Source: an uncultured delta proteobacterium (GTDB lineage Bacteria; Desulfobacterota; Syntrophia; Syntrophales; Smithellaceae). Taken from it: 64,000 bases of DNA. Within the stretch, counting starts at the first letter, position 1; each line of letters begins with the position of its first letter. Location of the stretch: NCBI GenBank assembly GCA_963753975.1, contig CAVWEH010000002.1:608001-672000 (forward strand), given 5' to 3'. The notes under the pieces were generated by a model, which had not been told where the DNA came from, did no database searches, and saw nothing but the letters and a program-made list of their open reading frames with translations. The position numbers were made by a program, and so were the translations under genes. Positions 2,216-22,295 of this stretch are shown piece after piece.

Positions 2216-2274
2216 AGAGGTTCTCTTTTTGACTTATTGCGAGTGTACCTGAAAGGCATGATTCTTCAAATGGA

Positions 2275-3412
2275 TCAGCAAGCTTGAAGAGGATTTTTTT
2301 TGGACGTATTTATACTGGCGGGAAACGTCAGTACAAACGTCGTCCCTTCTCCTTCTCTTGACGAAGCTTCTATTCCGCCATTGTGTGATTCCATGATTTT
2401 TTTGCAGAAAGTCAAGCCCGAGGCCGGAGCCTCTGATTTTTTCGTCTTTTCCCTTGCAGCGGAAAAAAGGCTCGAAAATCAACGAGAGCTGATCATGGGG
2501 AATGCCAATTCCCGTATCCGATACGTTGACGGTGGTGTAATATTCGTCGCTTTTAACGGTGACGGTTATTTTGCCGCCGGCCGGAGTATATTTTGTCGCG
2601 TTACCGATAATATTCGTAAATACCCTGACCAGGCTTTCCCCATCTCCTGTTATCTCCGGTAATTTTTTGGGGATATTTGTTTCCAGAGAAATGCCCTTCT
2701 TCCGACAGAGGGGGGTCATCTCTTCCACGCTTCGGGCGATAATGGAAGCCAGGCGCAGAGAGACTTTTTGTTGGGCCAGGGTTCCATTCTCTATGCGGCT
2801 GATGTCCAGCCAGTGTTCAACCATTTCCTCAAGACTCTGGATTCGCTTTCTGCATCGTTCAATGATTTCTTTGACATCTTTATCGAAACTCTTTCCCGCT
2901 ATTTCGTTCAGCGCCTCAATGTATTGCCGGATAACGACAAGCGGCGAACGCATTTCGTGGCTGACGAAGGTGATGAAGTTCTTTTGCATCTGATCTTTTT
3001 CTTCTTTTAGTTTTCTTGCTTCTATTCTAAGAGTGCGATGATCCAATCCCCTTTTAACGAGAACTCTTAACTGGTCGGGATTGAATGGTTTGGGAAGGTA
3101 ATCATGAGCTCCTTTTTGCATTGCTTCCACGGCGGAAACAATAGAGGCATAACCGGTAATCATGATAAGAATTATGTCCGGAATATCCTGGGAAAGAATT
3201 TCCATAATCTCCATTCCCGACATATTAGGCATTTTGAGATCAACCAAAGCCAGTGCCGGCTCATGCTGCCTGGCTAGATTAATGCCTTCGATACCCAGTT
3301 CGGCTGTAAGAACGGAATAGCCGCACTTTTCCAGCACCTGCCTGCATCCATCCCGCAGGGCCTCCTCATCATCAATAATGAGAATCAGAGGTTTTCGAGA
3401 TTGATCGGTCAT
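2275..3412 (-). CDS. Hybrid REC-histidine kinase (apparent +1 frameshift near 2417)
   Basis: REC (IIDDE...DLKMP), H-box SHEMRSPL, N/G boxes. Removing one base after GSGLG restores LTFCKKIMESHNGGIEASSREGEGTTFVLTFP...AC-stop at 2275. Confidence 0.85.
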
Positions 3413-3414
3413 CT

Positions 3415-3807
3415 CTATTTGCCGCTCAGTTCCTGAGCAACGAACCGGAGAAGATCATCCGCCTTTATAGGTTTATGCAATACTTTGTTGACTTTCGGAA
3501 ATTCCGGGGGAGGTTCAAAGGAATTATAAGGACCTTGAAGATCGACAGCGCTCAGCATGAAAAGGGGTGTATCTTTTCCGGTATCGGTGGCGCGGATTTT
3601 GTTCAGTACGGAAAAGCCCTCGCCCCAGGTTTCCATCATCATATCGATGACGGCCAGGTCCGGAGATATGGATTTCCACATCTCCACGCCGGCTTTTCCG
3701 TCTTCCGCCATAAATACCTCGTATCCGCCCTTTTCCAAAATAAGCTTGGTGGCAAATAAAAAGTCTTTGTCATCGTCTATTAGGAGTATTTTCTTTTTAA
3801 TCGTCAT
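3415..3807 (-). CDS. Stand-alone response regulator (REC only)
   Basis: LLIDDD, DMMM, LSA, KP motifs; GGAGGTG SD before the ATG at 3807. Confidence 0.88.
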   Translation of the reverse strand: MTIKKKILLIDDDKDFLFATKLILEKGGYEVFMAEDGKAGVEMWKSISPDLAVIDMMMETWGEGFSVLNKIRATDTGKDTPLFMLSAVDLQGPYNSFEPPPEFPKVNKVLHKPIKADDLLRFVAQELSGK

Positions 3808-3844
3808 GATGAAACACCTCCATAATACTTTTGTGCTATATAAG

Positions 3845-3860
3845 AGCAAGGATAATGCCA
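3845..3860 (-). promoter_or_regulatory. Sigma54 -24/-12 promoter of the REC / hybrid-kinase operon
   Basis: Minus strand TGGCATTATCCTTGCT = TGGC-N7-TTGC. Confidence 0.8.
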
Positions 3861-3941: not shown

Positions 3942-5306
3942 TCACGACTCTGTCTTTATCCCGTAGTTGCGCAATTTGATCCTCAATGTCTTTCTGTCAA
4001 TGCCGAGGAATTTTGCCGTTTTATTGATTTGAAAACTAAAGTGGCTGAGAGCTTTTTCGATGTGTTCTTTTTCGACATCGACCAAAGTCACCCTTCCCGA
4101 TGAAGAATCCACTACCGGCGCCTTCGCGCCTTCGCCCTGGCCATAGTAAAAGATATCGGATAAATTTACCGTTTCATGGTCACTCAGAACGCACAGACGT
4201 TCAATCGTGTTTCTCAGTTCCCTGACGTTTCCGGGCCATTTGTAGGACAGCAGCGATTTTTTTGCTTCTTCGGACAGACAGCGCACCTTGCTTTTATATC
4301 TCTTTGTGTACAAGTCGAGATAATGTTCGGCGATAGGAAGGATATCGGCCTTGTGCTCCTTCAATGGTTTGATATCCAAAGGCACGACGGAAAGCCGGTA
4401 AAACAGGTCCTCCCGGAATTTTCCCGCCTCTATTTCCAGCCGGATATCCTTGTTGGTCGCGGCAATAAGCCTGACATCCACCTTCTCGGACGATGATTTG
4501 CCGACCCGCGGCACTTCCTGCTCCTGAATTACCCGCAATAATTTTGCTTGAATATTGAGGCTGATGTTGGAAATTTCGTCGAGGAATAAGGTTCCTTTAT
4601 CCGCCATCTGGAAACGGCCGTCACGTGATTCCGTTGCACCGCTGAAGGCCCCTTTGACGTGGCCGAACAATTCGCTTTCCATCAGGCTCTCGGCGAGCGA
4701 AGAACAATCCACCGGGATGAATGGCCTTGCGGCCCGTTTGCTTAATTGATGAATGGTACGTGCGACAAGCTCTTTCCCCGTGCCGCTGCCTCCCGAGATA
4801 AGAACGGTACTGTCGGCCTGCGCGATTCTCTTGATCGAATCTTTAAGCTCTTTCATGCAGTCGCTGGATCCGATCAACATGGGAATATCTTTTTCATCTT
4901 TATCCAGCTCAATCGATTTAAGAGCATTGCCCACCGCGTCCCTGAGTTGACCCGCGGAGTACGGTTTCGTGAGAAAATTGAAAGCACCCTGACGCATGGC
5001 CTCGACAGCCAGCGGTATGGTTCCGTATCCGGTGATAATGATAACCTTCGCCGAAATGTTATTTTCTTCTTTGAGTTTTTTCAGGATATCCAGTCCGCTC
5101 ATTTTCGGCATTCTGATATCCAGCAGAATCAAGTCATAGTCATCCTTTAGCGCCATCTCCAGGCCACAAACAGCCTCTCCCGAACTTTCAACATGATATC
5201 CTTTTCGCGTGAGAATTTGATAACATCCGTCCCGGATGGATTCCTCATCATCAATAATAAGAATTTTCCTGCTCGTTTTCGCCAATTTCTCCACGAGTCC
5301 TCTCAA
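3942..5306 (-). CDS. NtrC-family sigma54-dependent response regulator (REC-AAA+-HTH)
   Basis: REC, Walker A GGSGTGKE, ESELFGHVKGAFSGA, LFLDEI, FREDLFYRL, WPGNVREL, Fis-type HTH. Real start may be a few codons downstream. Confidence 0.95.
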   Translation of the reverse strand: MRGLVEKLAKTSRKILIIDDEESIRDGCYQILTRKGYHVESSGEAVCGLEMALKDDYDLILLDIRMPKMSGLDILKKLKEENNISAKVIIITGYGTIPLAVEAMRQGAFNFLTKPYSAGQLRDAVGNALKSIELDKDEKDIPMLIGSSDCMKELKDSIKRIAQADSTVLISGGSGTGKELVARTIHQLSKRAARPFIPVDCSSLAESLMESELFGHVKGAFSGATESRDGRFQMADKGTLFLDEISNISLNIQAKLLRVIQEQEVPRVGKSSSEKVDVRLIAATNKDIRLEIEAGKFREDLFYRLSVVPLDIKPLKEHKADILPIAEHYLDLYTKRYKSKVRCLSEEAKKSLLSYKWPGNVRELRNTIERLCVLSDHETVNLSDIFYYGQGEGAKAPVVDSSSGRVTLVDVEKEHIEKALSHFSFQINKTAKFLGIDRKTLRIKLRNYGIKTES

Positions 5307-5480
5307 ATGAGACTATCCGGAATTCTGTTCAAATAACTGCAATCAGACTGTATTCAGGTCGCCACGTAACGACGAATTGTGAGATTGTTATGCTATTTTA
5401 TATGATTGTGCAAGTGAAAGGTTGGCTCCGCCGGAGATGCTGCTAACTGTTTGTGTTACACCTGGATCAAAAAATCACTA

Positions 5481-5519
5481 AGGGGTAATACGACCCTAAA
5501 AAGGGGTGATATTACCCCT
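5481..5519. promoter_or_regulatory. Tandem UAS palindromes upstream of hydrogenase operon 1
   Basis: AGGGGTAATACGACCCTA and AGGGGTGATATTACCCCT, 21 bp apart. Confidence 0.7.
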
Positions 5520-5583
5520 CAGAGCGGCATATATGCTCTACTTAATAGCTCACACATTATGGAAATTTAAGAATAAAATCATA

Positions 5584-5599
5584 TGGCATCAGTATTGCT
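5584..5599 (+). promoter_or_regulatory. Sigma54 -24/-12 promoter of hydrogenase operon 1
   Basis: TGGCATCAGTATTGCT = TGGC-N7-TTGC, about 75 nt before the first ATG. Confidence 0.82.
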
Positions 5600-5675: not shown

Positions 5676-7475
5676 ATGTGGGATACCATTAACGTCGGAG
5701 AAACATGTGTGGAACCTGCTATTAAGCAGTTTCTGCCGCCTTGCCAGAAACAATGTCCTGTCAATGAAGATATCCAGCGTACAAACGTACTTATCTCCCT
5801 ACTGCCGGAAGATCCGGCGCAGGCCAAAGATGGATTGATCCAGATCGGGGATTATCTTTTCGAAAATAACCCCCTTTTCCCGATTTGCGGCTACGTATGC
5901 GGCATCTGTGAGATGGGCTGCAATTATCAGAGTAAGGGAGGTGCCATCAGACGCCGGCTACTGAAACGGTTTGTATCCGACTTTTACCTCAATCACTTGG
6001 ATAAGAAAAAAGAATACGATGTCGTCAAGGACAAGGGAAACGTGGCAGTGATCGGCGGCGGTCCGGGCGGTTTGATGTGTGCCTTTCACCTAAGCAAAAA
6101 GGGCTATAGAGTTACCATCTTCGAGGCAACAAATAGATTGGGAGGGGCTCTTTGGCTTATCCCCCACTATCGTTTACCCAAGCTTGTTCTCCAGAGGGTC
6201 ATTGAAAACATTCTGAGAATTGCTGCTATCGAAGTAAAATACAATTCCAGGATCGGCGAAGGGAATCTGACTCTCGAAAAACTCAGGAAGGACGGATACA
6301 AAGCAGTGTTTATTGCCAAAGGCACACCCGCACCAAGGGTGCTTACATTTGGCCTGGAATTTGTGGAAAATCAGGATCTGGAAGGCATCGTGTACGGGCA
6401 GACATTCCTATACGAGATCAGCCGCGGAATCCTGATGAGAGATTACCTTGGTGGTAAAAAGGTTATTGTCATAGGCGGCGGCAACGTTGCCTTCGACGTG
6501 GCGCGATCAGCCAAGAGATTGGGAGGTGATATCACCGTAGTTGCCCTCGAAAGTGAGGACAAGACATCGAAGGACGGCATTCCTGCCGATCATGAGGAGA
6601 TCAGGGGCGCATGGGAAGAGGGTATCAGAATCATTTATTCCCGTGGGGTAAACAAAATACTGGGTAAAAAAGGACAGTTTGCTGGTATCGTATCTCCTAA
6701 GTGCACCCATGTCTTCGACGAAAAGGGCAGATTCAATCCCGCTTTCGACCTCAATGATGCGATCACCATAAATGGCGATATACTTATCATCACTGTGGGG
6801 CAGATTGCAGACAAGGATTTTCTGGAAAAAGAAGGCTTTCTTGATGAATACGGCCGGCTGGTTGTCGATTCCCTTACCCTCCAAAGTAATATCAAAGATT
6901 GGGTCTTTATCGGCGGCGATGTCCGAAAAGTTGGCTTCATGGTGAATGCCATGAGGGAGGGACAGGAAGCGGCGGAGTCTATCGAGCGTTATCTCAAGGG
7001 TCTGGACATCAAGGCAGGCAGGAAAAGGGAATACGAAGGATTCGATATTCCCCAGTTGAAAGATGCCGATTACAAACATGAACCCGATGTCGTGTGGCTT
7101 CCGCCGGACAAACGGATACACTTTCAGATGTACGAAAAAGGGTTTAGCCTCAAAGAGGCCATCGATGAGGCCAAGCGCTGCCTCTGCTGCGGCCCGTGTG
7201 TTTCCTGCAGGGCGTGCGTATCAATAGGCATTCAGGATGAACTGCCCTCTGTCGTCGTTCACGAGGACCTTTGCAGCGGCTGCGGTATCTGTGTTTCCTC
7301 CTGCCACTACGGCGCGGCCCAGCTCAAAGCAGTAAACGGCCACCTGGTATCCTCAACGGACATGTTCAAATGTAAGGCTTGCGGTATGTGCGTATCTGCT
7401 TGCCCGGCCGGAGCCAGGGAGTTGACCGGGTCCGACATGGAAAAGCGCATCTTGGAAATCTATGCTTCGCTTTAA
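5676..7475 (+). CDS. GltD/NfnB-like FAD-Fe/S oxidoreductase with C-terminal HdrA-type 2x[4Fe-4S] domain
   Basis: PPCQKQCP, CGYVCGICEMGC, FAD motif GGGPGG, second Rossmann motif GGGNVAFD, RCLCCGPCVSCRAC, and two CxxCxxCxxxC at the C-terminus. Confidence 0.85.
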   Translation: MWDTINVGETCVEPAIKQFLPPCQKQCPVNEDIQRTNVLISLLPEDPAQAKDGLIQIGDYLFENNPLFPICGYVCGICEMGCNYQSKGGAIRRRLLKRFVSDFYLNHLDKKKEYDVVKDKGNVAVIGGGPGGLMCAFHLSKKGYRVTIFEATNRLGGALWLIPHYRLPKLVLQRVIENILRIAAIEVKYNSRIGEGNLTLEKLRKDGYKAVFIAKGTPAPRVLTFGLEFVENQDLEGIVYGQTFLYEISRGILMRDYLGGKKVIVIGGGNVAFDVARSAKRLGGDITVVALESEDKTSKDGIPADHEEIRGAWEEGIRIIYSRGVNKILGKKGQFAGIVSPKCTHVFDEKGRFNPAFDLNDAITINGDILIITVGQIADKDFLEKEGFLDEYGRLVVDSLTLQSNIKDWVFIGGDVRKVGFMVNAMREGQEAAESIERYLKGLDIKAGRKREYEGFDIPQLKDADYKHEPDVVWLPPDKRIHFQMYEKGFSLKEAIDEAKRCLCCGPCVSCRACVSIGIQDELPSVVVHEDLCSGCGICVSSCHYGAAQLKAVNGHLVSSTDMFKCKACGMCVSACPAGARELTGSDMEKRILEIYASL

Positions 7476-7504
7476 TGCGATATACTTTGCATAAGGAGGA
7501 CAAT

Positions 7505-7900
7505 ATGACGGAGTTCACCCCCAAACTGGTATGCTTCTCCTGTAAGTTCGGGTGGGGTTATCTGAACACCAACGGCTATGAGAAACAGTTGAAAAACCTT
7601 ATTCCGGTTACCTGCAGCGGCAAGGTGGATACCACCCATATCATCGATGCCTTCAAGGAAGGGGCAGACGGAGTGCTTGTTCTCGGCTGTCCCGACAGGG
7701 AATGCCATTTCCAGACCGGCAATTACCAGGCAAGGAAGAGGATTCTGCTGTTGCGTAAAGTCCTTAAGGAATTCGGCATCGATCCCGGACGTCTGAAGAT
7801 TGCATTAAGTATAGACCCTGAAGGAACCCAGATCCCTGTCGTCATTGAAGCAATGAAAAAGGAGATTAAGAGTCTGGGGCCGTTAAGGTCTGCGGTGTAA
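7505..7900 (+). CDS. mvhD: Methyl-viologen-reducing hydrogenase delta subunit ([2Fe-2S])
   Basis: AGGAGG SD before ATG 7505; CFSC...CSGKVD...GADGVLVLGC...CHF...GIDPGRL. Confidence 0.88.
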   Translation: MTEFTPKLVCFSCKFGWGYLNTNGYEKQLKNLIPVTCSGKVDTTHIIDAFKEGADGVLVLGCPDRECHFQTGNYQARKRILLLRKVLKEFGIDPGRLKIALSIDPEGTQIPVVIEAMKKEIKSLGPLRSAV

Positions 7901-7954
7901 AATCGAAAGACAAAAACCGTAACAAAAAGTCTCAAAGTTAGATCGGAGAATATT

Positions 7955-8926
7955 ATGGCAGAAAAACCCAAAGTGGCAATTTACTGGCTGACGGCCTGCG
8001 GCGGCTGCGACGAAGCAATTGTGGATCTGAACGAAGCGATACTCCTGGTTGCCGACGCGATTGATATCGTACTCTGGCCGGTCGCTATGGACTTCAAGTA
8101 TGAAAGCATCCGGAAGATGAAAAAGGGCGAGATAGCGCTGGCCATCCTGCATGGGGCTGTACGAAATTCAGAACAGGAAGAAATGGCTAAATTGCTGAGA
8201 GAAAAATCGCAGCTCGTGCTCGCTTTCGGCGCCTGTGCCTGCTTTGGAGGCACCCCGGGACTGGCGAATTTCCGGTCAAAAGAAGACATTTTCAACTGGG
8301 TCTATCGGGATGCGCCGACAGTGGTAAACCCGAAAAATAACCGGCCGCAGACCGTATTCTCAGTCAACGGGAACAAGCTGACCTTGCCGGAATTCTTTGA
8401 CCGGGTTCATCCGCTACGCGATATCATCGATGTGGACTATTACCTGCCGGGATGCCCGCCGCCGCCGGATCTTATTGCCAATGCAGTGTTTGCCGTCCTG
8501 GAAGGCAAGTTGCCCTCCAGGGGTGCCACGCTGGCACCGAGCAAGCCTCTATGCGACACCTGCTCCCGGAATCAATCCAAACCGCAAAAGATAGAAATCT
8601 CGGAATTTAAAAGGATACACGAAGTGGAAGCAAAGGATGATCTGTGTTTCCTGGCGCAGGGAATTATCTGCCTGGGACCGGCGATCCGTTCCGGCTGCGG
8701 CGAAACATGCATCAGGACGAATGTTCCCTGCCGGGGCTGCTTCGGTCCGGTTGATGGTGTGGACGATGCCGGCGCAAAATTTATCTCCGGGCTTGCTTCG
8801 CTCATCAGTGCGGAAACTGAAGAAGATGCGCAGAAAACCATCGACGGAATTGCTGATCTGGCCGGTTACTGCTACCGTTTCAGTCTCCCTTCCGCATCGC
8901 TGAAACATAAAAATAAGGAGAAGTAA
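7955..8926 (+). CDS. mvhG: [NiFe]-hydrogenase group 3c small subunit
   Basis: CGGCD, GACA, PGCPP, CDTC, CFLAQGIICLGP...C...CRGCFGP. Confidence 0.9.
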   Translation: MAEKPKVAIYWLTACGGCDEAIVDLNEAILLVADAIDIVLWPVAMDFKYESIRKMKKGEIALAILHGAVRNSEQEEMAKLLREKSQLVLAFGACACFGGTPGLANFRSKEDIFNWVYRDAPTVVNPKNNRPQTVFSVNGNKLTLPEFFDRVHPLRDIIDVDYYLPGCPPPPDLIANAVFAVLEGKLPSRGATLAPSKPLCDTCSRNQSKPQKIEISEFKRIHEVEAKDDLCFLAQGIICLGPAIRSGCGETCIRTNVPCRGCFGPVDGVDDAGAKFISGLASLISAETEEDAQKTIDGIADLAGYCYRFSLPSASLKHKNKEK

Positions 8927-8928
8927 AC

Positions 8929-10389
8929 ATGGCGCGAAAAATTACAATAGATCCCATTACCAGGTTGGAGGGGCATGGAAAAATAGAAATTCTTCTCGAC
9001 GAGAAAGGTGAGGTAACGGATGCCTTCTGGCAGGTTACTGAACTGCGTGGTTTTGAGCGCTTCTGCCTCGGCAGACCCGCGGAAGAGATGCCGAGAATCG
9101 TACCGAATATATGCGGGGTATGCCCTTCCGCGCACCATATGGCTGCCACCAAGGCCCTCGACGACCTCTACAATGTGGAGCCCACGCCTGCCGCACGGCT
9201 GATCAGGGAACTGGAATTTAACGCCTTCTATATTGAGGACCATTATATCCACTTTTTCTTCCTGGCCGCCCCCGACTTCGTCGTCGGTCCGGACGCCGAT
9301 CCAAAAGAGCGGAATATCCTTGGCGTCATCGGCAAAGTGGGGAAGGAAATAGGGCTGAAGGTCATTGAGGTCAGAAAAAGAAACCGGGATATCATACGGC
9401 ACATCTTCACCAAGGCGCCGCACCCGGAAGGCGGGCTCGCCGGTGGCGTACCGCGGGGATTTACCGAGCAGGACCGCAAATGGGTGAAAGATACCGCTGT
9501 ATTTTCTCTCGACTTCGCCAAGTTCGCCATTCAGCTATTCAAGGATGTCGTGCTGGCAAATAAGTCTTATGTGGCTCTGATCCTCAATGATGCCTACAAA
9601 CTGAAGACTTACTACATGGCCCTGGTGGATGAGAACGACCGGGCTACGTTTTACGACGGAGTGGTCAAAGTCATCGATCCGGAAGGCAAGGAATATGTGA
9701 GATTCGCCCCCCGGGACTACGATAAGTATATCGGCGAATGGGTGGAGCCGTGGACCTACATCAGGCTTAACCATTTAAGGCAGCTTGGCTGGCAGGGACT
9801 GAAGGAAGGAAACGGCACATCGCTCTACCGTGTCGCCCCCCTTGCTAGGCTTAACGTAGCCGATGCCATGCAAACCCCGCTGGCACAGAAGGAGGCGGAG
9901 ATCATGTTCGATACCCTGGGAGGAAAACCCGCTCATCAGACACTCGCCACCCACTGGGCGCGCCTCATCTGCGCGTTACAGGCGGCGGAAAACAACGTGA
10001 TCATCGCAGATGAACCTCAACTTACCAGCAAGGACATCCGAAACATGAACCTCAAACTGAGAAACAAAGGCGTAGGCTGCGTGGAAGCTCCCCGTGGAAC
10101 GCTCTTCCATCATTACGAAACCGACGATAAAGGCATCCTCACGAAGGTTAACCTCATCGTAGCCACGCAGAATAATGCCGCTCCCATCTGCCTGTCGGTA
10201 AAAAAGGCCGCCAAGGAATTCGTCCATGGCCCGGACGTGAAAGAGGGTTTCCTGAACATGGTGGAAATGGCCTTCAGGGCTTACGATCCTTGCCTCTCCT
10301 GCGCCACACACTCTCTGCCGGGGACAATGCCTCTGGATGTAAAGATCAGAGATCATGAAGGCAAAGTAATCAGGGAGATCAGCCGCTGA
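8929..10389 (+). CDS. mvhA: [NiFe]-hydrogenase group 3c large subunit
   Basis: DPITRLEGH, ELRGFE, L1 ICGVC, EAPRGTL, L2 DPCLSCATH plus a cleavable tail. Confidence 0.93.
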   Translation: MARKITIDPITRLEGHGKIEILLDEKGEVTDAFWQVTELRGFERFCLGRPAEEMPRIVPNICGVCPSAHHMAATKALDDLYNVEPTPAARLIRELEFNAFYIEDHYIHFFFLAAPDFVVGPDADPKERNILGVIGKVGKEIGLKVIEVRKRNRDIIRHIFTKAPHPEGGLAGGVPRGFTEQDRKWVKDTAVFSLDFAKFAIQLFKDVVLANKSYVALILNDAYKLKTYYMALVDENDRATFYDGVVKVIDPEGKEYVRFAPRDYDKYIGEWVEPWTYIRLNHLRQLGWQGLKEGNGTSLYRVAPLARLNVADAMQTPLAQKEAEIMFDTLGGKPAHQTLATHWARLICALQAAENNVIIADEPQLTSKDIRNMNLKLRNKGVGCVEAPRGTLFHHYETDDKGILTKVNLIVATQNNAAPICLSVKKAAKEFVHGPDVKEGFLNMVEMAFRAYDPCLSCATHSLPGTMPLDVKIRDHEGKVIREISR

Positions 10390-10399
10390 GAACAAATTT

Positions 10400-10915
10400 A
10401 TGAAAATACTTATCCTCGGTATGGGCAACCCCATCCTGTCAGACGACGGTGTGGGGTTATTGGCAGCAGAAAAGCTCCGGCACAGAATCCCCGGGGCGGA
10501 TGTGGCGTCAAGCGCCATGATTGGCCTTTCCCTCTTCGATCTGATTATCGGTTACGATGCGTTCTTTATCATCGATGCCATGACCACGCGGAACGGAAAA
10601 CCGGGAGAACTGAAAAAGATCGGCGAAGATGACCGGCACGGCACGCTGCATCTCTTCTCTTCCCACGGTCTGAATATCTTTGAACTGATGGAGCTCGGTG
10701 TTCGCTGTGGTTATGACATGCCCCGACTTTCGGCAGTTTATGGGATTGAAATAGGCAACGAAGTTGCCTTCGGTGAAACACTTTCGTCCTCGCTAAATGA
10801 GAAACTTCCCGCCATAGTCGAAGAAATCATCGACGACATAAACATTATCCTCTTCTCTTGGAAACAGATCAAAACGCCGAACTGCATCATGCTGCGTCAT
10901 TCCGAGAAGCGGTAG
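10400..10915 (+). CDS. Hydrogenase maturation protease
   Basis: LGMGNPILSDDGVG, IIDA, SSHG. Confidence 0.9.
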   Translation: MKILILGMGNPILSDDGVGLLAAEKLRHRIPGADVASSAMIGLSLFDLIIGYDAFFIIDAMTTRNGKPGELKKIGEDDRHGTLHLFSSHGLNIFELMELGVRCGYDMPRLSAVYGIEIGNEVAFGETLSSSLNEKLPAIVEEIIDDINIILFSWKQIKTPNCIMLRHSEKR

Positions 10916-10923
10916 CGACGAGT

Positions 10924-12903
10924 TTATTTCCCATTGTATGCGGGTAAAGATATAATAAAACTCGTTCCAGCGTCCGGGTTGCGTTCCGCATCGATGGTGC
11001 CGTTGTGTTTTTGGATAATTCCGTACACGATGGAAAGTCCCAGTCCCGTTCCCTGACCTGGTTCCTTCGTCGTGAAGAATGGTTCAAAGATGTGAGAAAG
11101 GTGTTCCTCGTCTATCCCCTTACCCGTGTCTGATATGGAAATTCTGACGGAATTGTTCTTCTTACTCAACCCACTAGAAATCTTCAGCTTTCCGCCGCCT
11201 TTCATGGCATCGGCTGCGTTGATAAAAAGATTCAGGAAAACTTCTTCCAGTCTTGATCTGTCACACTTCACTTCGGGAAGATTTTCCGCAAGCTTGGCTT
11301 CGATTTCTATCCCGTGAAACATGGATTGGTCTCTGACCAGTTTGAGAGAGGTATTGATGACCTGATTTATCTGCAGAGGAAGCATTTCGCCTGTCGGCGC
11401 TCTCGCAAAATCCAGCAGACTATGCACAATTTCTTTACAGCGGTTCGTCTGATAGATGATCTTCTGCATATTTTCCCGTGCGGGGCTATCCTCCGGGATA
11501 TCTTCCAGGACGATGTTGCTGTACAGAAGAATTCCACCCAGTGGATTGTTGATTTCGTGGGCGACACCCGCCGCCATCTCACCGAGGGCAGTCAGTTTTT
11601 CGGTTTTTGCGAGTTGTTGATGCATTTTCTGCAATTGATCATTGTGGTCTTTGAGGGAGCTGGCCATGTCATTGAAGGCTGCATCCAGCATAGCAAAACC
11701 CGATATATTATCAGGCGCTAGTTTGTAGTCCAGGTTGCCGGAGGCGATGGCTTCCGTAGCCTTCTTGAGGATGCGTATTCTCTTGATGATGGTGTTACCC
11801 AAATAAAGAGAAATGATAAACGCTATAATCATTCCCAGAGTTGTTATTCCCAGGTTTATCCAGATCATTTCCTTTTGTATGTCCCGGTATTTGGCTTCGA
11901 GAATCCCTGTGTAAAGCACGCCGATGAGTTTTTTATCGATGTTAAAAATAGGGGTATAAGTGGTAATGTACCAGTCTTTCACAACAAAAGCCCTGCCCAC
12001 CCAGTCTTTCCCTTCCTTGATGACCCGGTCATAAACTTCTTTGGAAAGAATAGTGCCAATGGCCCTTTTGTTATCTTTTGTCATAACGTTGGTGGATATA
12101 CGCACACCCCCCTGAAATATAGTGGCCACGCCCATTTCCTGACCTTTGTATTTTTCGTCGTGATACACGGTCTCTTTAATCTTATCCACTATCTCATTGT
12201 CCTTATTAATCAGAACGCCTCCGACCAAAACGCCCAACAACATGTTACTGTTTCTATCCATTACCGGATATGCAACTTTCATGACCATGCCTTCCGAGAG
12301 TTTATCTTCCCTGATTTCGGCGGACAAAGGCGTTTTCACAATATCCATTTTCGCCCGGTCCGAAAGCGCGGGATTTTCTCTTACAATGTTTTTAATGGAC
12401 ATGAGTTCGGTTGAGGAGAGGGGGATTTTTTTTTCTATGCAGTTTTTGACGAGGGGATCCTTCAGAAGGCTGTCCCCTCTGATTGCCGGATTAGACGCCC
12501 TGTACAATACCTTCCCTCCGGCATCAACAAGCGTGAGCATATCAAGCAAAATATGGTCATTCCCAGGCTGTGCTCCTGTCCCGCTGCGGATGAGTGCTTT
12601 CATATAGGCCATGCCGGAGATATCATGCCTGTTGATAAGCTCATTCAGGTCGGACCCCTCGGCGGTAAACTGAATCAGGGACATAATTTTATCGAGCTTA
12701 TTATTATATATCAGCTTGGCCGTATTGATATCGAGGCGCACCCTGTCCTGCACCTCCGCAATAGTGTTCCTGTTGATTGTCCATATGCTGATAATGGTGG
12801 CAAAGATACCTGTAAGGCACGTGACAATCAGAAATCCAAACGCAAGACGGCTTTGTAAGTCCAACTTAAAAAGCCGCCGTATTTGTTTATTATTGATTTT
12901 CAT
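10924..12903 (-). CDS. Membrane sensor histidine kinase (periplasmic Cache-like, HAMP, HisKA, HATPase)
   Basis: Two TM helices, ATIFQGGVRISTNV Cache signature, AHEINNPL, PFFTTK, GTGLGL. Confidence 0.93.
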   Translation of the reverse strand: MKINNKQIRRLFKLDLQSRLAFGFLIVTCLTGIFATIISIWTINRNTIAEVQDRVRLDINTAKLIYNNKLDKIMSLIQFTAEGSDLNELINRHDISGMAYMKALIRSGTGAQPGNDHILLDMLTLVDAGGKVLYRASNPAIRGDSLLKDPLVKNCIEKKIPLSSTELMSIKNIVRENPALSDRAKMDIVKTPLSAEIREDKLSEGMVMKVAYPVMDRNSNMLLGVLVGGVLINKDNEIVDKIKETVYHDEKYKGQEMGVATIFQGGVRISTNVMTKDNKRAIGTILSKEVYDRVIKEGKDWVGRAFVVKDWYITTYTPIFNIDKKLIGVLYTGILEAKYRDIQKEMIWINLGITTLGMIIAFIISLYLGNTIIKRIRILKKATEAIASGNLDYKLAPDNISGFAMLDAAFNDMASSLKDHNDQLQKMHQQLAKTEKLTALGEMAAGVAHEINNPLGGILLYSNIVLEDIPEDSPARENMQKIIYQTNRCKEIVHSLLDFARAPTGEMLPLQINQVINTSLKLVRDQSMFHGIEIEAKLAENLPEVKCDRSRLEEVFLNLFINAADAMKGGGKLKISSGLSKKNNSVRISISDTGKGIDEEHLSHIFEPFFTTKEPGQGTGLGLSIVYGIIQKHNGTIDAERNPDAGTSFIISLPAYNGK

Positions 12904-14537: not shown

Positions 14538-15278
14538 ATGCTTAAAGTTTTTTATTGTGATTTCCATATTCACACTTGCCTATCGCCTTGCGCCGATCTG
14601 GATATGCACCCCCAAGCCCTGGTAGAAAAAGCCCTCGCAGCAAAACTCGATATCATCGCTATCTGCGATCACAACTCTTCCGAAAACGTACCTTATGTTA
14701 TCAAGGCGGCGGAAGGAAAAAATCTAAAAATATTGCCGGGAATGGAAATAACGACAAGCGAAGAAGTGCATCTCATCGCCATTTTTAATTCCTTGTCCGA
14801 TCTGGCGGCGCTGCAAGTGCTTGTGTATCAACACTTGGCGGGTACAAACGATGAGCAAAAGTTCGGTGTTCAGGCGATTGTCAACGAGAAGGGCGAAGTG
14901 GAAGGAATAAACGATAAATTATTAATCGGCGCCACCGATCTTCCGTTAAATGAATTATTGAATTATTTACATGAACTGAACGGATTGGCCGTAGCGGCGC
15001 ATATTGACAGGGAAAGCTTCAGCGTTTTGAGCCAACTGGGCTTCATCGATGAAAAGACGCATTTTGACGCATTGGAGATAACAGCGGCAACAGGATTTGC
15101 ACAGGCAAGGGTCAAATATAAAGAATTGAGTAATTATTCTTTTATCGTGTCGTCCGATGCCCACTTTTTGAAAGACATCGGGAAGGCGGCAACGAAAATT
15201 GTCCTTGAGGAGCCGACCTTCGCCGAATTGAAAATGGCCTTCGCCGGACAAAAAGGCCGTCACATTCTGGAGCAATAA
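14538..15278 (+). CDS. PHP-domain phosphoesterase
   Basis: DFHIHTCLSPC, CDHN, GMEITT.EEVH, AHIDR, SDAH. Confidence 0.9.
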   Translation: MLKVFYCDFHIHTCLSPCADLDMHPQALVEKALAAKLDIIAICDHNSSENVPYVIKAAEGKNLKILPGMEITTSEEVHLIAIFNSLSDLAALQVLVYQHLAGTNDEQKFGVQAIVNEKGEVEGINDKLLIGATDLPLNELLNYLHELNGLAVAAHIDRESFSVLSQLGFIDEKTHFDALEITAATGFAQARVKYKELSNYSFIVSSDAHFLKDIGKAATKIVLEEPTFAELKMAFAGQKGRHILEQ

Positions 15279-16837: not shown

Positions 16838-19800
16838 ATGAAGGTTTTTCGTTCACACTTATTGATCTGCGGAGGCACGGGTTGTCAATCTTCCGGCAGT
16901 CATGCCGTAAAAACAGCTTTGTTGGAAGAGGTCGATAAAAGGGGATTGGCTGAAGAAATAAAGATTGTGGAAACAGGTTGTAACGGTTTTTGCGCTTTGG
17001 GTCCCATTATGGTTGTTTACCCCGAAGGCGTCATTTACGTATCTTTAAAGCCGGAAGATATCCCGCAATTAGTCGAAGAACACTTAATCAAAGGAAGGGT
17101 CTTAAAACGGCTTTTATACAGAGAACCCGTTACCGATCAGATTATTCCTACAATGCAGGATATTCCCTTTTTTGCTCTTCAGGAATTGCGGGTGTTGCGG
17201 AACCGCGGATTAATTGATCCCGAAAAAATAGATGAATATATCGCCCGTGACGGTTACGCCGGTATGGCCAAAGCGCTTACGGAAATGACCCCGGAGCAAA
17301 TTATTCAAGAAATTCTTAATTCCGGTTTACGCGGGCGCGGCGGAGCGGGATTTCCCACTGGACTGAAATGGAAGTTTGCCTCCCAGTCCAAAGGTGATGT
17401 TAAATATGTTTTGTGCAACGCCGACGAAGGCGACCCGGGCGCTTTCATGGATAGAAGCGTGCTGGAAGCAGATCCTCACGCCGTCCTGGAAGGAATGGTC
17501 ATCGCGGCCAAAGCCATCGGCTCTCATCACGGATACATTTATTGCCGCGCTGAGTATCCCTTGGCCATTCACCGTTTAAATGTCGCCATTGCCCAGGCCA
17601 AAGAAGCCGGATTACTAGGCAAAGATATCTTGGGCACGGGTTTTGATTTTGATCTGGAGATTTACCAGGGAGCCGGCGCTTTTGTCTGCGGTGAGGAAAC
17701 AGCGCTGATGACTTCCATTGAAGGAAAAAGAGGCATGCCGCGGCCGAGACCACCCTTCCCCGCCGTTGCCGGACTTTGGCAAAAGCCCAGCATCCTGAAT
17801 AACGTGGAAACTCTGGCTAATATCGGCCAGATTATTTTACGCGGCGCCAAGTGGTATGCTTCTGTGGGCACGGAAAAAAGCAAAGGAACAAAGGTTTTTG
17901 CTCTTACCGGAGATGTCGCCAATGTCGGTCTGGTGGAAGTTCCTATGGGAACGACATTAGGCACCATCGTTTATGATATCGGCGGCGGAATCCCCAAGGG
18001 GAAAAAATTCAAGGCCGCTCAGTTGGGTGGTCCTTCCGGCGGTTGTATTCCCGTGCAGCACCTGAACGCGCCCGTAGATTATGAAAAGGTTGTTGAACTC
18101 GGCGCGATTATGGGTTCCGGCGGCTTGATCGTCATGAACGAAGACAAGTGCGCGGTAGATATGGCGCGCTTTTTTATGGATTTCTGTCAGGATGAATCCT
18201 GCGGCAAATGCACTCCCTGCCGTGAGGGAACAAAACGCATGCTGGATATTTTAACCAATATCACTCTGGCTAAAGGCAAAGAAGGAGATATCGAGCTTCT
18301 CGAAGAAATGGCCGGAGTTATCAAAAATGCAGCTTTATGCGGTCTGGGTCAAACCGCGCCTAACCCGGTACTGAGCACCATTCGTTATTTCCGCAAAGAG
18401 TACGAGGAACATATACGCGAACATCGCTGCCGTGCCGCTGTTTGTTCGGCAATGTTTAAATCTCCCTGCCAGCATACCTGCCCCATTGGCATGGATATAC
18501 CTTCTTATATTGCTCTTGTCAGGGCGGGAAGATTCGATGACGCTTATAAAATATTGCTCTTGACCAACCCCTTCCCGTCTGTTTGCGGAAGAGTCTGCGA
18601 CCATAAGTGCCAGAGCAAGTGCCGCCGCGGCAATCTGGACGAACCTATAGCCATCAAATTTCTGAAAAGATTTATCACGGATAATGCCGGCCGCCCGAAA
18701 ATTGAGCTGGTGCCGCAAACGAGAAAAGAAAAGATCGCCGTGGTGGGAGCAGGTCCGGCTGGACTTACCGCTGCGCGCGACTTGGCTTTAAGAGGTTATA
18801 AGGTAACGGTTTTTGAGGAGCTTCCCCAGCCGGGAGGAATGATGTACTGGGGCATTCCTTCTTATCGCCTGCCCCGTAAAGTATTGGATAAAGAAATCGA
18901 CGACATCCGGGCACTGGGTGTCGAAATCCGTTTGAATACGCGCGTCGGCAAAGATATTACGTTTGCCAAACTGGAAAAAGATTTTCATTATGTTTATCTT
19001 GCCTCGGGAGCGCATAAGAGCCAGAAGATGAATGTCCCCGGCGAGGATTTGAAAAATGTTTTTGGCGGCGTGGAGTTCCTGCGCGATTTTAACGCCAATG
19101 AGGATAAATGGTTAAAAGGCAAAAGCAAGCTGGGTAAAAAAGTTGCTGTTATCGGCGGCGGTAATTCCGCCATCGATGCCGCCCGCATTGCCGTGCGTCT
19201 GGGAGCGGATGTAACGATTCTTTACCGCCGCTTAAGGCAGGATATGCCCGCGGCACCGGAAGAAATCAAAGCCGCCGAAGAAGAAGGAATCAAGATTGAA
19301 TATCTCATTGCCCCGTTAAAAATTGAAGGCACTAAAGAAAAAGTCGGCTCTATTACCTGCCAGCGCATGGTTCTGGGCGACTTTGACTCGAGCGGCCGTA
19401 AAAAACCGGCCGCAATTGCCGGCTCAGAATTTACCTTAAAGGTCGATTCCGTTATCGCCGCCATCGGCCAGATTCCCGATATGAGTTTTATTGATAAAAA
19501 AACCGGCATTACAATAAACAAACGGGATTGTTTTGATGTAGGTAATGACTATAAATCACGCACACCTAACCCCCGCTACTTCGCGGGCGGTGACGCCGTA
19601 ACCGGCCCGGATACCGTAATTGCCGCCATTGCCGCGGGACATCAAGCGGCAGACGATATAGATTCAGCTATCCGCAAGGCCAACAATGAGCCGGCTTATG
19701 AAAAACCGGTGCCGGAAAAAATTGATGTGCCCCTGGTTATTGATGAAGAAACGGTTGAAGCAATCCAAATGATAATGCCGGAAATATCGGACTCTAAACG

Positions 19801-19894
19801 TAAAATGAGTTTTGCGGAAGTGGAATTAGGTTTCAAGAAAGCGGACGCCATTAAAGAAGCATCGCGTTGTTTACGCTGTGACGCTGAATTATAA
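16838..19894 (+). CDS. NuoF/HydB-like FMN subunit fused to a GltD-like FAD/NADP(H) domain
   Basis: N-terminal CGGTGC/GCNGFC, GRGGAGFPTG, NADEGDPGAFMDR, ESCGKCTPCREG, then SPCQHTCP, CGRVC..CQSKC, GAGPAG, GGGNSAID..LYRR, RCLRC. Confidence 0.92.
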   Translation: MKVFRSHLLICGGTGCQSSGSHAVKTALLEEVDKRGLAEEIKIVETGCNGFCALGPIMVVYPEGVIYVSLKPEDIPQLVEEHLIKGRVLKRLLYREPVTDQIIPTMQDIPFFALQELRVLRNRGLIDPEKIDEYIARDGYAGMAKALTEMTPEQIIQEILNSGLRGRGGAGFPTGLKWKFASQSKGDVKYVLCNADEGDPGAFMDRSVLEADPHAVLEGMVIAAKAIGSHHGYIYCRAEYPLAIHRLNVAIAQAKEAGLLGKDILGTGFDFDLEIYQGAGAFVCGEETALMTSIEGKRGMPRPRPPFPAVAGLWQKPSILNNVETLANIGQIILRGAKWYASVGTEKSKGTKVFALTGDVANVGLVEVPMGTTLGTIVYDIGGGIPKGKKFKAAQLGGPSGGCIPVQHLNAPVDYEKVVELGAIMGSGGLIVMNEDKCAVDMARFFMDFCQDESCGKCTPCREGTKRMLDILTNITLAKGKEGDIELLEEMAGVIKNAALCGLGQTAPNPVLSTIRYFRKEYEEHIREHRCRAAVCSAMFKSPCQHTCPIGMDIPSYIALVRAGRFDDAYKILLLTNPFPSVCGRVCDHKCQSKCRRGNLDEPIAIKFLKRFITDNAGRPKIELVPQTRKEKIAVVGAGPAGLTAARDLALRGYKVTVFEELPQPGGMMYWGIPSYRLPRKVLDKEIDDIRALGVEIRLNTRVGKDITFAKLEKDFHYVYLASGAHKSQKMNVPGEDLKNVFGGVEFLRDFNANEDKWLKGKSKLGKKVAVIGGGNSAIDAARIAVRLGADVTILYRRLRQDMPAAPEEIKAAEEEGIKIEYLIAPLKIEGTKEKVGSITCQRMVLGDFDSSGRKKPAAIAGSEFTLKVDSVIAAIGQIPDMSFIDKKTGITINKRDCFDVGNDYKSRTPNPRYFAGGDAVTGPDTVIAAIAAGHQAADDIDSAIRKANNEPAYEKPVPEKIDVPLVIDEETVEAIQMIMPEISDSKRKMSFAEVELGFKKADAIKEASRCLRCDAEL

Positions 19895-19935
19895 ATCTTA
19901 TGTGAGCTTATTAAATATTTTGCAAGGAGCAGGAA

Positions 19936-21723
19936 ATGGAGAAAAAAGTACCTTTAACAATAGATGGAAAAAAAGTGGAAGCTTTTGCGGGCCAAACCAT
20001 TTTAGAATGTGCCAATGAAAACGGCATTTTTATCCCCACGCTTTGTAACCATCCTGCACTCTCTCCTATTGGGGCTTGCCGGATGTGTCTGGTAGAAATA
20101 AAAGGGCAACGTAATTTGCAGACCTCGTGTACATTTCCTGTAACCGATGGAATGGAAATACAAACTGATTCCAAGGCGGTAATTGATGCCCGCAAGCTGG
20201 TTCTGGATATGATCTTTTCGGAAAGAAATCATTTTTGTCCCTATTGTGAGATGAGCGGCAATTGCGAGTTGCAGGATCTCGGTTACCGTTATCGCGTTGA
20301 TCACTGGGTATTCCCCACTTATACGAAAGCTTTTCCACTGGATGCCACCCATAAATACTACCTGATGGAACACAACCGGTGCGTCCTTTGCGAAAGATGC
20401 ATTCGTGCCTGCGATGAGCTTGTGGCTAATCACACCCTGGGTTTAAGACAGCGGGGAAGTGAGAGTATGGTTCACGCCGACGGCAATATTCCGCTCGGTG
20501 AATCTACCTGCATATCCTGCGGCACCTGTACTCAGGTTTGTCCAACGGGAGCTCTATTTTACAAAAGAAGCGCTTTTATGGGCAAAGACAGCGTGACTAA
20601 ACAAGTAAAAAGCACCTGCAATCAATGCAGCATCGGCTGTGGTACGGAAATTGTAACACGCGGCGGAAATGTTCTCTGCATTATGGGCGATTGGGATGCT
20701 CCGGTTAATAAAGGGCTACTTTGCAAAATGGGCCGTTTTGAACCCTTATATGACAGCCGCCAGAGACTGACCAAGCCCCTTTTACGCACTAAAGGGAAGT
20801 TCGAAGAAATAAGCTGGGAAAAAGCAATCCAGACGCTGGCCAAGCAGATTAACACAATCAAAGCTCCGGAAATAGGCGTGCTTGCCGGCAGTTATTCCTC
20901 CAACGAAGCACTTTATTTGATTAAAAAATTATTCAAGCAGGAATTGCACGTCTCCAATATCGGTCTCATCAATATGGCGGCACCCAGGATTTTCAACAAA
21001 GCTCAGAGTAAACTGGAAGATATTGCCCAAAGCGATATTATTCTTGTCATCGGTTCCGATCCGCTAAATGACCAGCCGGTCGCTTCCTTCATCATTAAGC
21101 GCGCCGTAGACAAGGGAGCAAGACTTATTGTAGTTGATGATAAGAAAAATGGTTTGGCTCCGTTTGCCTTCCTGAATATCGCTATGGCCGATATAAGCAA
21201 AGCAATGGAAGTTGCCAAAAGAGCCAATAATCCGTTTATTCTTTACGGCGCCAGTATTACCAAACCGGCCCTAGCCGAGCTCAAGAAACTGGAAGATAAA
21301 GCAAAATACATCATCGTCGAATCGGGCGTCAATACCGTAGCGGCAGCGGCATTGGGATTAAATAACGGTTATGATCCCGCCTCCCTCAAACTTGTATATG
21401 TCTTACTGGGTGAGCAAAATTACGCGGGCGACGATCTATTCAAAAAAATTCCTCAAAATGCATTTATCGTGGCACAGGCAAGCTATTTATCGCCTCTCAC
21501 AGAGAGGGCAGACCTTGTGTTACCTGCGGCAATCTGGTCGGAACAAACGAGCAGCTTGACCAATATCGAAGGAAGGATACAGAGTATGAATCGCGCGGTG
21601 GAACCTTTAGGCGATGCTAAACCGGATTGGGAAGCATTGCAATTATTATCAATACAACTGGGCAAGGATATTTCCGTGTCTATAAATGAAGCTTCAGCTG
21701 AAGTGATCAAGTCTCTTAAATGA
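19936..21723 (+). CDS. NuoG/HydA-like Fe-S subunit with a molybdopterin-oxidoreductase-like scaffold and no H-cluster
   Basis: PTLC..GACRMC..TSC, HFCPYC..C, two CxxCxxCxxxC, CNQCSIGC..LC, DLVLPAA..E..TNIEGR; no FeFe H-cluster motifs. Confidence 0.85.
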   Translation: MEKKVPLTIDGKKVEAFAGQTILECANENGIFIPTLCNHPALSPIGACRMCLVEIKGQRNLQTSCTFPVTDGMEIQTDSKAVIDARKLVLDMIFSERNHFCPYCEMSGNCELQDLGYRYRVDHWVFPTYTKAFPLDATHKYYLMEHNRCVLCERCIRACDELVANHTLGLRQRGSESMVHADGNIPLGESTCISCGTCTQVCPTGALFYKRSAFMGKDSVTKQVKSTCNQCSIGCGTEIVTRGGNVLCIMGDWDAPVNKGLLCKMGRFEPLYDSRQRLTKPLLRTKGKFEEISWEKAIQTLAKQINTIKAPEIGVLAGSYSSNEALYLIKKLFKQELHVSNIGLINMAAPRIFNKAQSKLEDIAQSDIILVIGSDPLNDQPVASFIIKRAVDKGARLIVVDDKKNGLAPFAFLNIAMADISKAMEVAKRANNPFILYGASITKPALAELKKLEDKAKYIIVESGVNTVAAAALGLNNGYDPASLKLVYVLLGEQNYAGDDLFKKIPQNAFIVAQASYLSPLTERADLVLPAAIWSEQTSSLTNIEGRIQSMNRAVEPLGDAKPDWEALQLLSIQLGKDISVSINEASAEVIKSLK

Positions 21724-21737
21724 AAGGAGAAGCCTAG

Positions 21738-22283: not shown

Positions 22284-22295
22284 AGGAGAACATTT

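Follow-up and report, generated by a model that had tools for sequence, protein, structure and literature searches.

Hydrogenases of the MvhADG type (group 3c) are usually annotated as heterodisulfide-reductase-linked and electron-bifurcating, and the worked examples in the accessible part of the HydDB description interpret group 3c matches in just this way (PMC5037454). The stretch of DNA analysed here (64,000 nucleotides (nt), G000:C2:608001-672000, hereafter the window) raises the question of what such a hydrogenase does when its genes stand next to a partner of another type, as it carries mvhD, mvhG and mvhA directly behind the gene for an iron-sulfur flavoprotein that is built around a GltD/NfnL-type core and has no HdrA flavin core. 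The window is part of a 755-kb contig (C2) in a genome of 2.43 Mb and 6 contigs, and the nearest public relatives of the hydrogenase locus are metagenome-assembled genomes (MAGs) labelled Smithella, Syntrophaceae or Syntrophales. The operon design is real and is assembled from known parts, and its sequence suggests that the product is probably a cytoplasmic, non-bifurcating and heterodisulfide-independent oxidoreductase of four subunits that couples H2 to nicotinamide adenine dinucleotide (NAD+).

The listing of open reading frames (ORFs) together with domain scans yielded five intact and colinear genes on the plus strand. The first one (5676-7475) encodes the flavoprotein of 599 amino acids (aa), which was characterised by Pfam, NCBIfam, PDB alignments, an AlphaFold2 fold search and a tree. 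It is followed by the genes for MvhD, the [2Fe-2S] connector subunit (7505-7900, 131 aa; Pfam FlpD and a match to the HdrA2 model), the small subunit MvhG (7955-8926; VhuG model and Oxidored_q6), the intact [NiFe] large subunit MvhA (8929-10389; VhuA model, 375 bits, and ligand motifs) and a hydrogenase maturation endopeptidase (10400-10915; TIGR00072, 86.9 bits, exceeding the cut-off of 47.45). Gene positions and domains agree with a preliminary description of the window, which had placed MvhDGA and a GltD-like flavoprotein at 5676-10915. For mvhD we prefer the ATG at 7505, which lies behind an AGGAGG and gives a 131-aa protein that aligns end to end with its relatives, over the ORF starting with TTG at 7379, which overlaps the flavoprotein gene.

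MvhA contains the motifs for the nickel-iron ligands, NICGVCPSAHH (CGxC) and DPCLSCATH, and its top PDB match is 7t2r_D with 365.9 bits, with 9sw2_F, 9sfi_g and 5odc_F near an E value of 1e-98. Its score against the VhuA model is under the cut-off of 800 bits, as is that of MvhG against the VhuG model (205 bits, cut-off 450). MvhA ends in a C-terminal tail of 25 residues, which we take to be the substrate of the maturation protease, and the N-terminus of MvhG (MAEKPKVAIYW...) lacks a twin-arginine translocation (Tat) signal, indicating that the subunit is cytoplasmic. MvhD is a family-specific variant (PF02662, E 7e-30) with the five conserved cysteines C10-x2-C13, C37, C62 and C67. In the HdrA2 model, which has 777 positions, the tail of the flavoprotein (residues 525-586) matches positions 571-628 and MvhD matches positions 645-774, so that the two genes reproduce consecutive parts of the C-terminal end of an HdrA-MvhD fusion.

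The flavoprotein itself comprises a Fer4_20 region (residues 21-105), i.e. a DPD/GltD-type N-terminal cluster domain, a Pyr_redox_2 core (residues 122-429) with the two Rossmann folds for flavin adenine dinucleotide (FAD) and NAD(P), and a dicluster Fer4 domain (residues 526-581), all assigned by Pfam. The top NCBIfam match is PRK12771, annotated as 'NAD(P)-binding protein' (328 bits, under the cut-off of 516), and the GltD models stay below their cut-offs as well (TIGR01318, 153 vs. 483 bits; TIGR01317, 113 vs. 448 bits); no gene for a glutamate synthase large subunit (gltB) adjoining the flavoprotein gene was detected in the ORF listing and domain scan. The HdrA, HdrA2 and hdrA_Methbact models cover only residues 518-590, and scans with HdrA-type models detected no thioredoxin-reductase-like FAD core of HdrA in the protein. 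Residues 480-599 have their top single-domain PDB match in the ferredoxin domain at the C-terminus of HdrA (9sfi_A, residues 573-635, 51.6 bits), which the MvhB polyferredoxin outscores solely by summing several repeats. Both the domain scans and the match to 9sfi_A bear out the earlier view of the protein as a GltD/NfnB-type core of 599 aa extended by an HdrA-like C-terminal domain.

Full-length comparisons place the flavoprotein closest to proteins of the Nfn type. The top PDB sequence match is NfnA (9n5u_A, E 2.6e-59), and NfnL (5jca_L) is matched with an E value of 1e-51. An AlphaFold2 model (mean predicted local distance difference test 89.5, predicted template modelling score 0.87) has its top fold matches in NfnA and StnC of the Bfu-type complexes NfnABC and StnABC, with a template modelling score (TM-score) on the query of 0.72-0.73 over 613-638 columns, and the Foldseek comparison with NfnB/NfnL gave a TM-score on the target of 0.78. 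Among the best 120 of 6274 significant sequence matches 119 are 594-616 aa long and one has 559 aa, all being at least 63% identical. An exhaustive representative search reduced the family to a few clusters, beyond which it returned HdrL-like giants of 1100-1500 aa with 35-42% identity as well as assorted fusions.

The position of the family was resolved by a tree of 49 GltD-like cores (415 columns, IQ-TREE, LG+C20+F+G4), whose rows were hand-picked from the search matches and include HdrL, NfnB and a NuoF-GltD fusion of the same genome. All 10 Mvh-linked rows form one clade (ultrafast bootstrap 96, Shimodaira-Hasegawa-like approximate likelihood ratio test 89, monophyletic in 97% of the bootstrap trees), from which all 11 HdrL inserts are excluded, as are NfnB and the NuoF-GltD fusion of the same genome; a quick tree agreed. 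The placement of P0126, an MvhD-fused protein, as sister of this clade is weakly supported (73/59). We ruled out an origin of the family by excision of an insert from HdrL, as all 11 sampled inserts lie outside the clade; the flavoprotein is thus no HdrL fragment, nor is it placed within the sampled HdrL inserts. The case that the preliminary description had named as its refutation, a flavoprotein that is merely a piece of HdrA or HdrL, therefore fails, the family being conserved in length and monophyletic.

The linkage to Mvh genes was followed in three locus scans, which gave 22 distinct contigs with a flavoprotein of at least 52% identity (L014-L020, L021-L023 and 12 among L101-L116, four ids of the latter range repeating earlier contigs). 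Two of them, L103 and L114, stop at the flavoprotein gene or shortly behind it and allow no judgement, leaving 20. In all of these mvhG adjoins the flavoprotein gene, and mvhA does so in 19, with L108 ending inside mvhG. MvhD is encoded in every judged contig, with 67-98% identity in Syntrophales-type loci and 52-56% in L115 and L022; the MvhD of L023 is 36% identical and its gene is located past the protease gene. As negative control served 77 superfamily loci, which were collected with one generic pattern and sample the wider superfamily, not the family. MvhG or MvhA within 6 kb was found in none of these 77 loci, which have at most 38% identity among the matches listed. An MvhD-like gene is present a few kb downstream in 11 of the 77 (L025, L026, L028-L031, L040, L058, L071, L079 and L092), which we read as an HdrL-type context. 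The mvhDGA linkage is conserved and specific to the flavoprotein family. In addition, three distant relatives (P0126, P0137 and P0144) are natural fusions of a GltD-like core, the dicluster domain and MvhD. The spacing of the genes varies, as about 750 nt separate the flavoprotein gene from mvhD in several Syntrophales MAGs (L104, L016/L102, L021, L105, L107 and L112); in L104 this insert (7842-8468) holds an ORF of 208 aa, which is not a conserved subunit.

The nucleotide-binding site of the flavoprotein was compared with those of solved Nfn proteins. In HMMER alignments the Y-R-R motif of NfnA (9n5u) and NfnL (5jca, 5vj7) aligns with A290-L291-E292 of the flavoprotein, followed by an insert of 5 residues, which substantiates the earlier remark that the strand reads VVALES instead of YRR. 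In an alignment of 62 relatives the conservation of both L291 and E292 reaches 90% or more, and (A/C/S/T)-L-E together with the insert occurs in 36 of 36 rows of the close family. An internal control is provided by a NuoF-fused GltD-like module of the same window (16838-19894), which reads ILYRRLRQD at this site. The second Rossmann fold of the flavoprotein is complete and conserved. An acidic residue at the end of the second Rossmann strand is the classical signature of NAD(H) binding, and the nucleotide site of the flavoprotein is likely to be of the NAD type rather than of the NADP type.

A motif of the N-terminal part also resembles that of NfnA. K97, located in an L-K-R-F motif and at least 90% conserved, aligns with the L-K-R-F of NfnA and the L-E-R-F of bifurcating NfnL. 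According to the available portion of PMC12018979 the cluster beside the flavin is ligated by Lys in NfnA and by Glu in bifurcating NfnL, and the FAD of the NfnL-like module in NfnA-type proteins lies off the junction of the two electron paths, only feeding electrons from NADPH into the cluster chain. K97 would then be the residue equivalent to the Lys cluster ligand of NfnA. After the core follows an invariant R501-C502-x2-C505, to which the close family adds C508, C511 and C514.

Taken together, these features suggest a soluble hydrogenase of four subunits, MvhA, MvhG, MvhD and the flavoprotein, which would link H2 to NAD(H). Electrons would start at the [NiFe] site of MvhA and pass via the MvhG clusters to the [2Fe-2S] cluster of MvhD, from there to the two [4Fe-4S] clusters of the HdrA-like tail and a possible extra cluster at C502-C514, and finally via two N-terminal clusters to the FAD, where hydride would be exchanged with NAD+. 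By thermodynamic reasoning, NADH-driven formation of H2 is feasible only at low H2 pressures such as those kept by syntrophs. In a low-H2 syntroph the likely direction would thus be re-oxidation of NADH with release of H2, and the same enzyme might take up H2 when it is plentiful. All computable parts of the earlier proposal, a minimal heterodisulfide-independent H2:NAD(P)+ enzyme that possibly prefers NAD, agree with our analysis, the catalytic activity being a prediction.

Several points weigh against this assignment. The glycine fingerprint of the nucleotide site is GGGNVA (GxGxxA), which NADPH-dependent Nfn proteins have as well, and the consulted part of PMC12054007 interprets the GxGxxA pattern as NADP-type, so that the assignment to NAD hinges on the acidic residue. 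The N-terminal domain has six conserved cysteines (C23, C27, C71, C75, C78 and C82) and lacks the first C-x2-C of NfnL, which makes the number and type of the N-terminal clusters uncertain. In addition, the clusters of the flavoprotein are divided between an N-terminal and a C-terminal region, and a branched arrangement of clusters around the flavin is possible. That MvhD docks on the C-terminal ferredoxin domain of HdrA, taken as established in the preliminary description, found no confirmation in the literature consulted. Literature searches returned no study of any enzyme of the flavoprotein family, and a stand-alone GltD-type flavoprotein together with MvhDGA was not found in the full-text literature, with subscription journals outside the search. 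Relatives of the operon, with about 90-95% identity, are also represented among the contigs assembled from four RNA libraries of wetlands, and pieces crossing the junction of the flavoprotein gene and mvhD were recovered (892 nt over 6925-7794, as well as 7227-7517 and 7310-7509). These contigs may include DNA and derive from relatives, not from the source strain; they show presence in RNA libraries and no level of expression, stretches that they leave uncovered carry no information, and they give a weak hint of in-situ expression of operon relatives.

One alternative is an electron-bifurcating or confurcating [NiFe] hydrogenase similar to HydABC, in which the FAD would sit between the N-terminal clusters, serving ferredoxin, and the C-terminal clusters, serving MvhD. 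Homology of the core to NfnL, whose FAD bifurcates, and the two distinct cluster modules speak for such an enzyme, which might also suit a syntroph. The best full-length fold matches, however, are to NfnL-like modules that do not bifurcate, those of NfnA and StnC, and the aligned ligand position is occupied by Lys as in NfnA and not by Glu as in bifurcating NfnL. Moreover, by general thermodynamic reasoning the H+/H2 couple offers no high-potential acceptor that could pay for NADH-driven reduction of ferredoxin, and the window already has a cluster for a Bfu-like [NiFe] hydrogenase of the NuoF/NuoG type, so we regard a bifurcating enzyme as unlikely. In its confurcating form, NADH and reduced ferredoxin would both deliver electrons to the GltD/NfnL-type FAD, from which they would reach the [NiFe] site by way of the HdrA-like tail and then MvhD; if this distinctly unlikely version were true, the complex would be a hitherto unrecognised type of confurcating [NiFe] hydrogenase and a nickel-based counterpart of HydABC for syntrophs that relies on an Nfn-type and not on a NuoF-type flavin.

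The same complex might use NADP(H) instead, like the group 3b sulfhydrogenases. This would be in line with the GxGxxA fingerprint shared with NADPH-dependent Nfn proteins and with the Y-R-R motif that is kept by the three distant relatives P0126, P0137 and P0207. In the flavoprotein, however, both arginines are lost, a conserved glutamate ends the second β-strand and a family-specific insert follows, whereas another GltD-like module of the genome keeps Y-R-R, rendering an NADP(H)-using enzyme improbable.

A further question is whether the flavoprotein and Mvh could be an electron-input arm that docks onto HdrBC-like, HdrL or DsrC-type partners encoded elsewhere. HdrB-like and HdrC-like genes as well as two HdrL-like loci are indeed present in the genome, and MvhD is known as a modular connector, as stated in the part of PMC12350162 that is available. 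In agreement with the preliminary description, which had seen no hdrB or hdrC in the window, no gene with a CCG domain (HdrB-type) is located on contig C2, all 12 matches in the genome being on C1, C4 and C5. Three MvhD genes were identified in the genome, and the two outside the operon lie on C1 and C5, each following HdrL-like genes. At C1:245004-256694 (L012 5004-16694) an HdrL-like ORF of 1301 aa and an overlapping continuation of 260 aa in another frame are followed, in a row, by MvhD, an Fe-S protein, HdrC, HdrB, AsrA/AsrB-like genes and nfnAB; on C5, further HdrL-like pieces precede MvhD. Every Hdr-like locus thus has its own MvhD, which argues against a sharing of Hdr with the Mvh operon without disproving it. 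Together with the missing HdrA thioredoxin-reductase core of the flavoprotein this makes an input arm for Hdr-type partners quite improbable. No Hdr genes were noticed in the loci of the flavoprotein family, in which no systematic scan with Hdr models was made.

The HdrL-linked MvhD genes show a peculiarity of their own. Canonical MvhD genes next to HdrL-like genes contain an in-frame stop, which is located at the N-terminal Cys motif in L025, L026 and L079 and at a later G-C position in L040, L058, L071 and L092. Selenocysteine has been reported in MvhD proteins of Desulfobacterium autotrophicum (PMC2702500), and the in-frame stop of the HdrL-linked genes is most simply read as a selenocysteine codon. 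The Mvh-linked MvhD of the flavoprotein family has Cys throughout.

That the H2 electrons go to an acceptor other than a pyridine nucleotide, such as a glutamate-synthase large subunit or, as with SudA, polysulfide, is very improbable, since no gene for such a partner is found in the operon or the conserved neighbourhood and the complete second Rossmann fold is conserved, even though GltD-type subunits serve many partners, as mentioned in the accessible parts of PMC5736913 and PMC12018979.

An H2:NAD+ oxidoreductase as proposed here would share parts with several known systems. The closest on the hydrogenase side are MvhADG/VhuADG-HdrABC of hydrogenotrophic methanogens (group 3c; 5odc, 9sw2, 9sfi), in which MvhA, MvhG and MvhD are homologous to the subunits of the operon and the C-terminal ferredoxin domain of HdrA resembles the tail of the flavoprotein. 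The operon, however, has no HdrA flavin core, no HdrB and no HdrC, so that the association with HdrABC typical of group 3c is absent and bifurcation to a heterodisulfide is impossible; its partner is of the GltD/NfnL type with a pyridine-nucleotide site, and in its MvhD the N-terminal Cys pair is shifted and a short stretch is deleted. On the flavoprotein side the NfnL-like modules of NfnA and StnC (9n5u, 9bov, 8oh5) are the top sequence and fold matches and have the L-K-R-F motif and the post-core C-x2-C in common with it. Within the text available from PMC12018979 these modules are plain nucleotide ports that feed a cluster chain. They are NADPH-specific (Y-R-R) and fused to NuoG/Fdh-like domains within a NuoF-based bifurcating complex, whereas the flavoprotein is a stand-alone protein with A-L-E and would exchange electrons with a [NiFe] hydrogenase via MvhD.

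NfnB/NfnL of the NfnAB complex (5jca, 4ylf) agrees with the flavoprotein in fold, FAD site and N-terminal cluster domain, but the operon has no gene for a PyrK-like NfnA/NfnS partner, the true nfnAB of the genome being on C1. The flavoprotein further differs by A-L-E in place of Y-R-R, Lys in place of the Glu ligand, the missing first C-x2-C and the extra C-terminal cluster domains. In HdrL, too, a GltD-like NAD(P)H module and ferredoxin domains of the HdrA type occur together, with MvhD encoded next to them, but HdrL has a complete HdrA core, is 1100-1500 aa long and is usually encoded beside HdrBC. An hdrA cluster with mvhADG has also been described, namely type III of Bathyarchaeota (available part of PMC12054007).

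Similar reactions or pairings have been described for hydrogenases with other building blocks. The group 3d Hox enzyme (5xf9) catalyses the same net reaction as proposed here, between H2 and NAD(H), using a NuoF-type FMN (flavin mononucleotide) diaphorase. The putative 'glutamate synthase-linked' [FeFe] hydrogenases of group A2 also pair with a GltD-type protein, as noted in the accessible part of PMC5037454, and an NADH-dependent, ferredoxin-independent [FeFe] hydrogenase of Syntrophomonas wolfei, reported in the portion available of PMC5626996, shows that a non-bifurcating NADH hydrogenase is usable by a syntroph. The group A2 and S. wolfei enzymes are [FeFe] hydrogenases, in contrast to the [NiFe] hydrogenase of the operon, and neither these two nor Hox contain MvhD or an HdrA-type tail. 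Possible relatives of the cassette are the S. fumaroxidans hydrogenases 'Mvh1 (Sfum_3535-37)' and 'Mvh2 (Sfum_3954-57)', which are listed with 'FAD and NAD+-binding oxidoreductase' subunits in an accessible section of PMC5947623 and mentioned in passing, with FAD/NAD-binding subunits, in those of PMC8691401 and PMC10787695; no S. fumaroxidans record is among the related loci. For the 'cytoplasmic Vhu hydrogenase' of Dehalococcoides only VhuA and VhuG are mentioned in the part of PMC6005880 at hand.

The cassette shows that in bacteria some Mvh-type enzymes, which form a recognisable subset, have a partner other than heterodisulfide reductase and probably carry out a simpler reaction between H2 and NADH. 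Re-oxidation of NADH to H2 is central to the energetics of Smithella-type syntrophs, and for this step a [NiFe] hydrogenase that is linked to NADH and controlled by sigma-54 would be a concrete candidate. A flavoprotein of about 600 aa with A/C-L-E at the nucleotide site, encoded upstream of mvhD, is a clear annotation marker to distinguish such loci from true Mvh-Hdr.

The sigma-54 dependence is suggested by the region upstream of the operon. A -24/-12 type promoter element, TGGCATCAGTATTGCT, is located at 5584-5599 on the plus strand, 76 nt ahead of the ATG of the flavoprotein gene. The pattern TGGCAYN5TTGCW has 2 matches in the 64-kb window, with 0.24 expected by chance, and the element TGGCAT-N5-TTGCT is kept without exception in the 8 close upstream regions compared; of 15 further loci of the family, 10 have a relaxed form of it. 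Further upstream lies an inverted repeat, GGGGTAATA...TATTACCCC (5478-5522), with arms of 19 nt that are 84% complementary and 7 nt apart; it recurs in each of the 8 upstream regions that were aligned, those of the window and of L014-L020, and is the probable binding site of the enhancer-binding protein. Divergently from the operon, on the minus strand, an NtrC-type sigma-54 enhancer-binding response regulator is encoded (3942-5306; Pfam Response_reg, Sigma54_activat and HTH_8), a homolog of which is present in the flanks of 10 of the 22 related contigs, and the genome contains rpoN at C2:595329-595805.

The second match of the pattern, a sigma-54-type -24/-12 element on the minus strand (TGGCATTATCCTTGCT, 3845-3860), lies upstream of a regulator/kinase pair on the same strand. 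The pair consists of a single-domain response regulator (3415-3849; Pfam Response_reg), with homologs of 85-92% identity in 5 of 7 close loci, and a hybrid histidine kinase with receiver, HisKA and HATPase domains (2234-3412; Pfam Response_reg, HisKA and HATPase_c), the homolog of which is found in the same place in L014, L015, L017, L018 and L019. On the other side the operon is flanked by the convergent gene of a sensor kinase with sCache, HAMP, HisKA and HATPase domains (10924-12903, minus strand; Pfam), homologs of which adjoin the operon in L014, L015 and L017-L019 and are encoded close to it in several loci that are more distant. The operon is probably under sigma-54 control and activated by the neighbouring NtrC-type protein and the kinases. 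These regulatory elements and the signalling flank are newly described for the window and partly conserved in relatives.

A second cluster for a cytoplasmic [NiFe] hydrogenase is located about 6 kb downstream (16838-23724, plus strand). It encodes, all on the plus strand, a [2Fe-2S]-NuoF-GltD-like fusion of 1018 aa with the NADP-type ILYRR (16838-19894), a NuoG/HoxU-like protein (19936-21723), a [NiFe] small subunit (21738-22283) and a [NiFe] large subunit (about 22290-23724), whose gene is split by a frameshift close to position 22470, so that its initial 73 codons are in another frame than the remaining approximately 380. Judging from its genes, this cluster appears to encode a NiFe hydrogenase of the NuoF-based (Bfu) type to which an NADPH port has been added. 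Other genes of the genome are split between frames in the same manner, i.e. HypD and one [NiFe] large subunit on C5, and as several genes are affected, assembly frameshift errors are a likelier explanation for the large subunit in the window than a pseudogene. Between the two hydrogenase clusters an ORF of 246 aa (14538-15278, plus strand) matches only the N-terminal part of a model of 944 positions for a TrlF-family AAA-like ATPase and may be the remnant of a defence or mobile element.

Within the flavoprotein family we also observed variants in length and domain content. Some members with 55-58% identity (G328, G386, G440, G464, G233 and G537, frames of 729-742 aa) are about 130 residues longer, and in P0123 the flavoprotein is fused to a C-terminal response-regulator receiver domain, which points to a direct control of the electron-transfer protein by phosphorylation in such lineages.

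The distribution of the family is patchy. The flavoprotein was detected in 11 of 151 sampled genomes of the same order, including the source genome, which corresponds to 8 of 62 genera, and was not found in the sole other sampled genome of the same genus, which is 98% complete. Of 401 genomes sampled across the phylum, 18 yield a match with an E value of at most 1e-100, 12 of these with at least 55% identity. The source names of close matches include Syntrophobacteraceae, Deferrisomatales, Chloroflexi and a Methanolliviera MAG. The G+C content of the operon is 0.50-0.54 (window positions 6001-10000), compared with 0.39-0.48 across most of the window, and this raised value, the patchy spread and the high conservation are consistent with a possible lateral acquisition of the operon.

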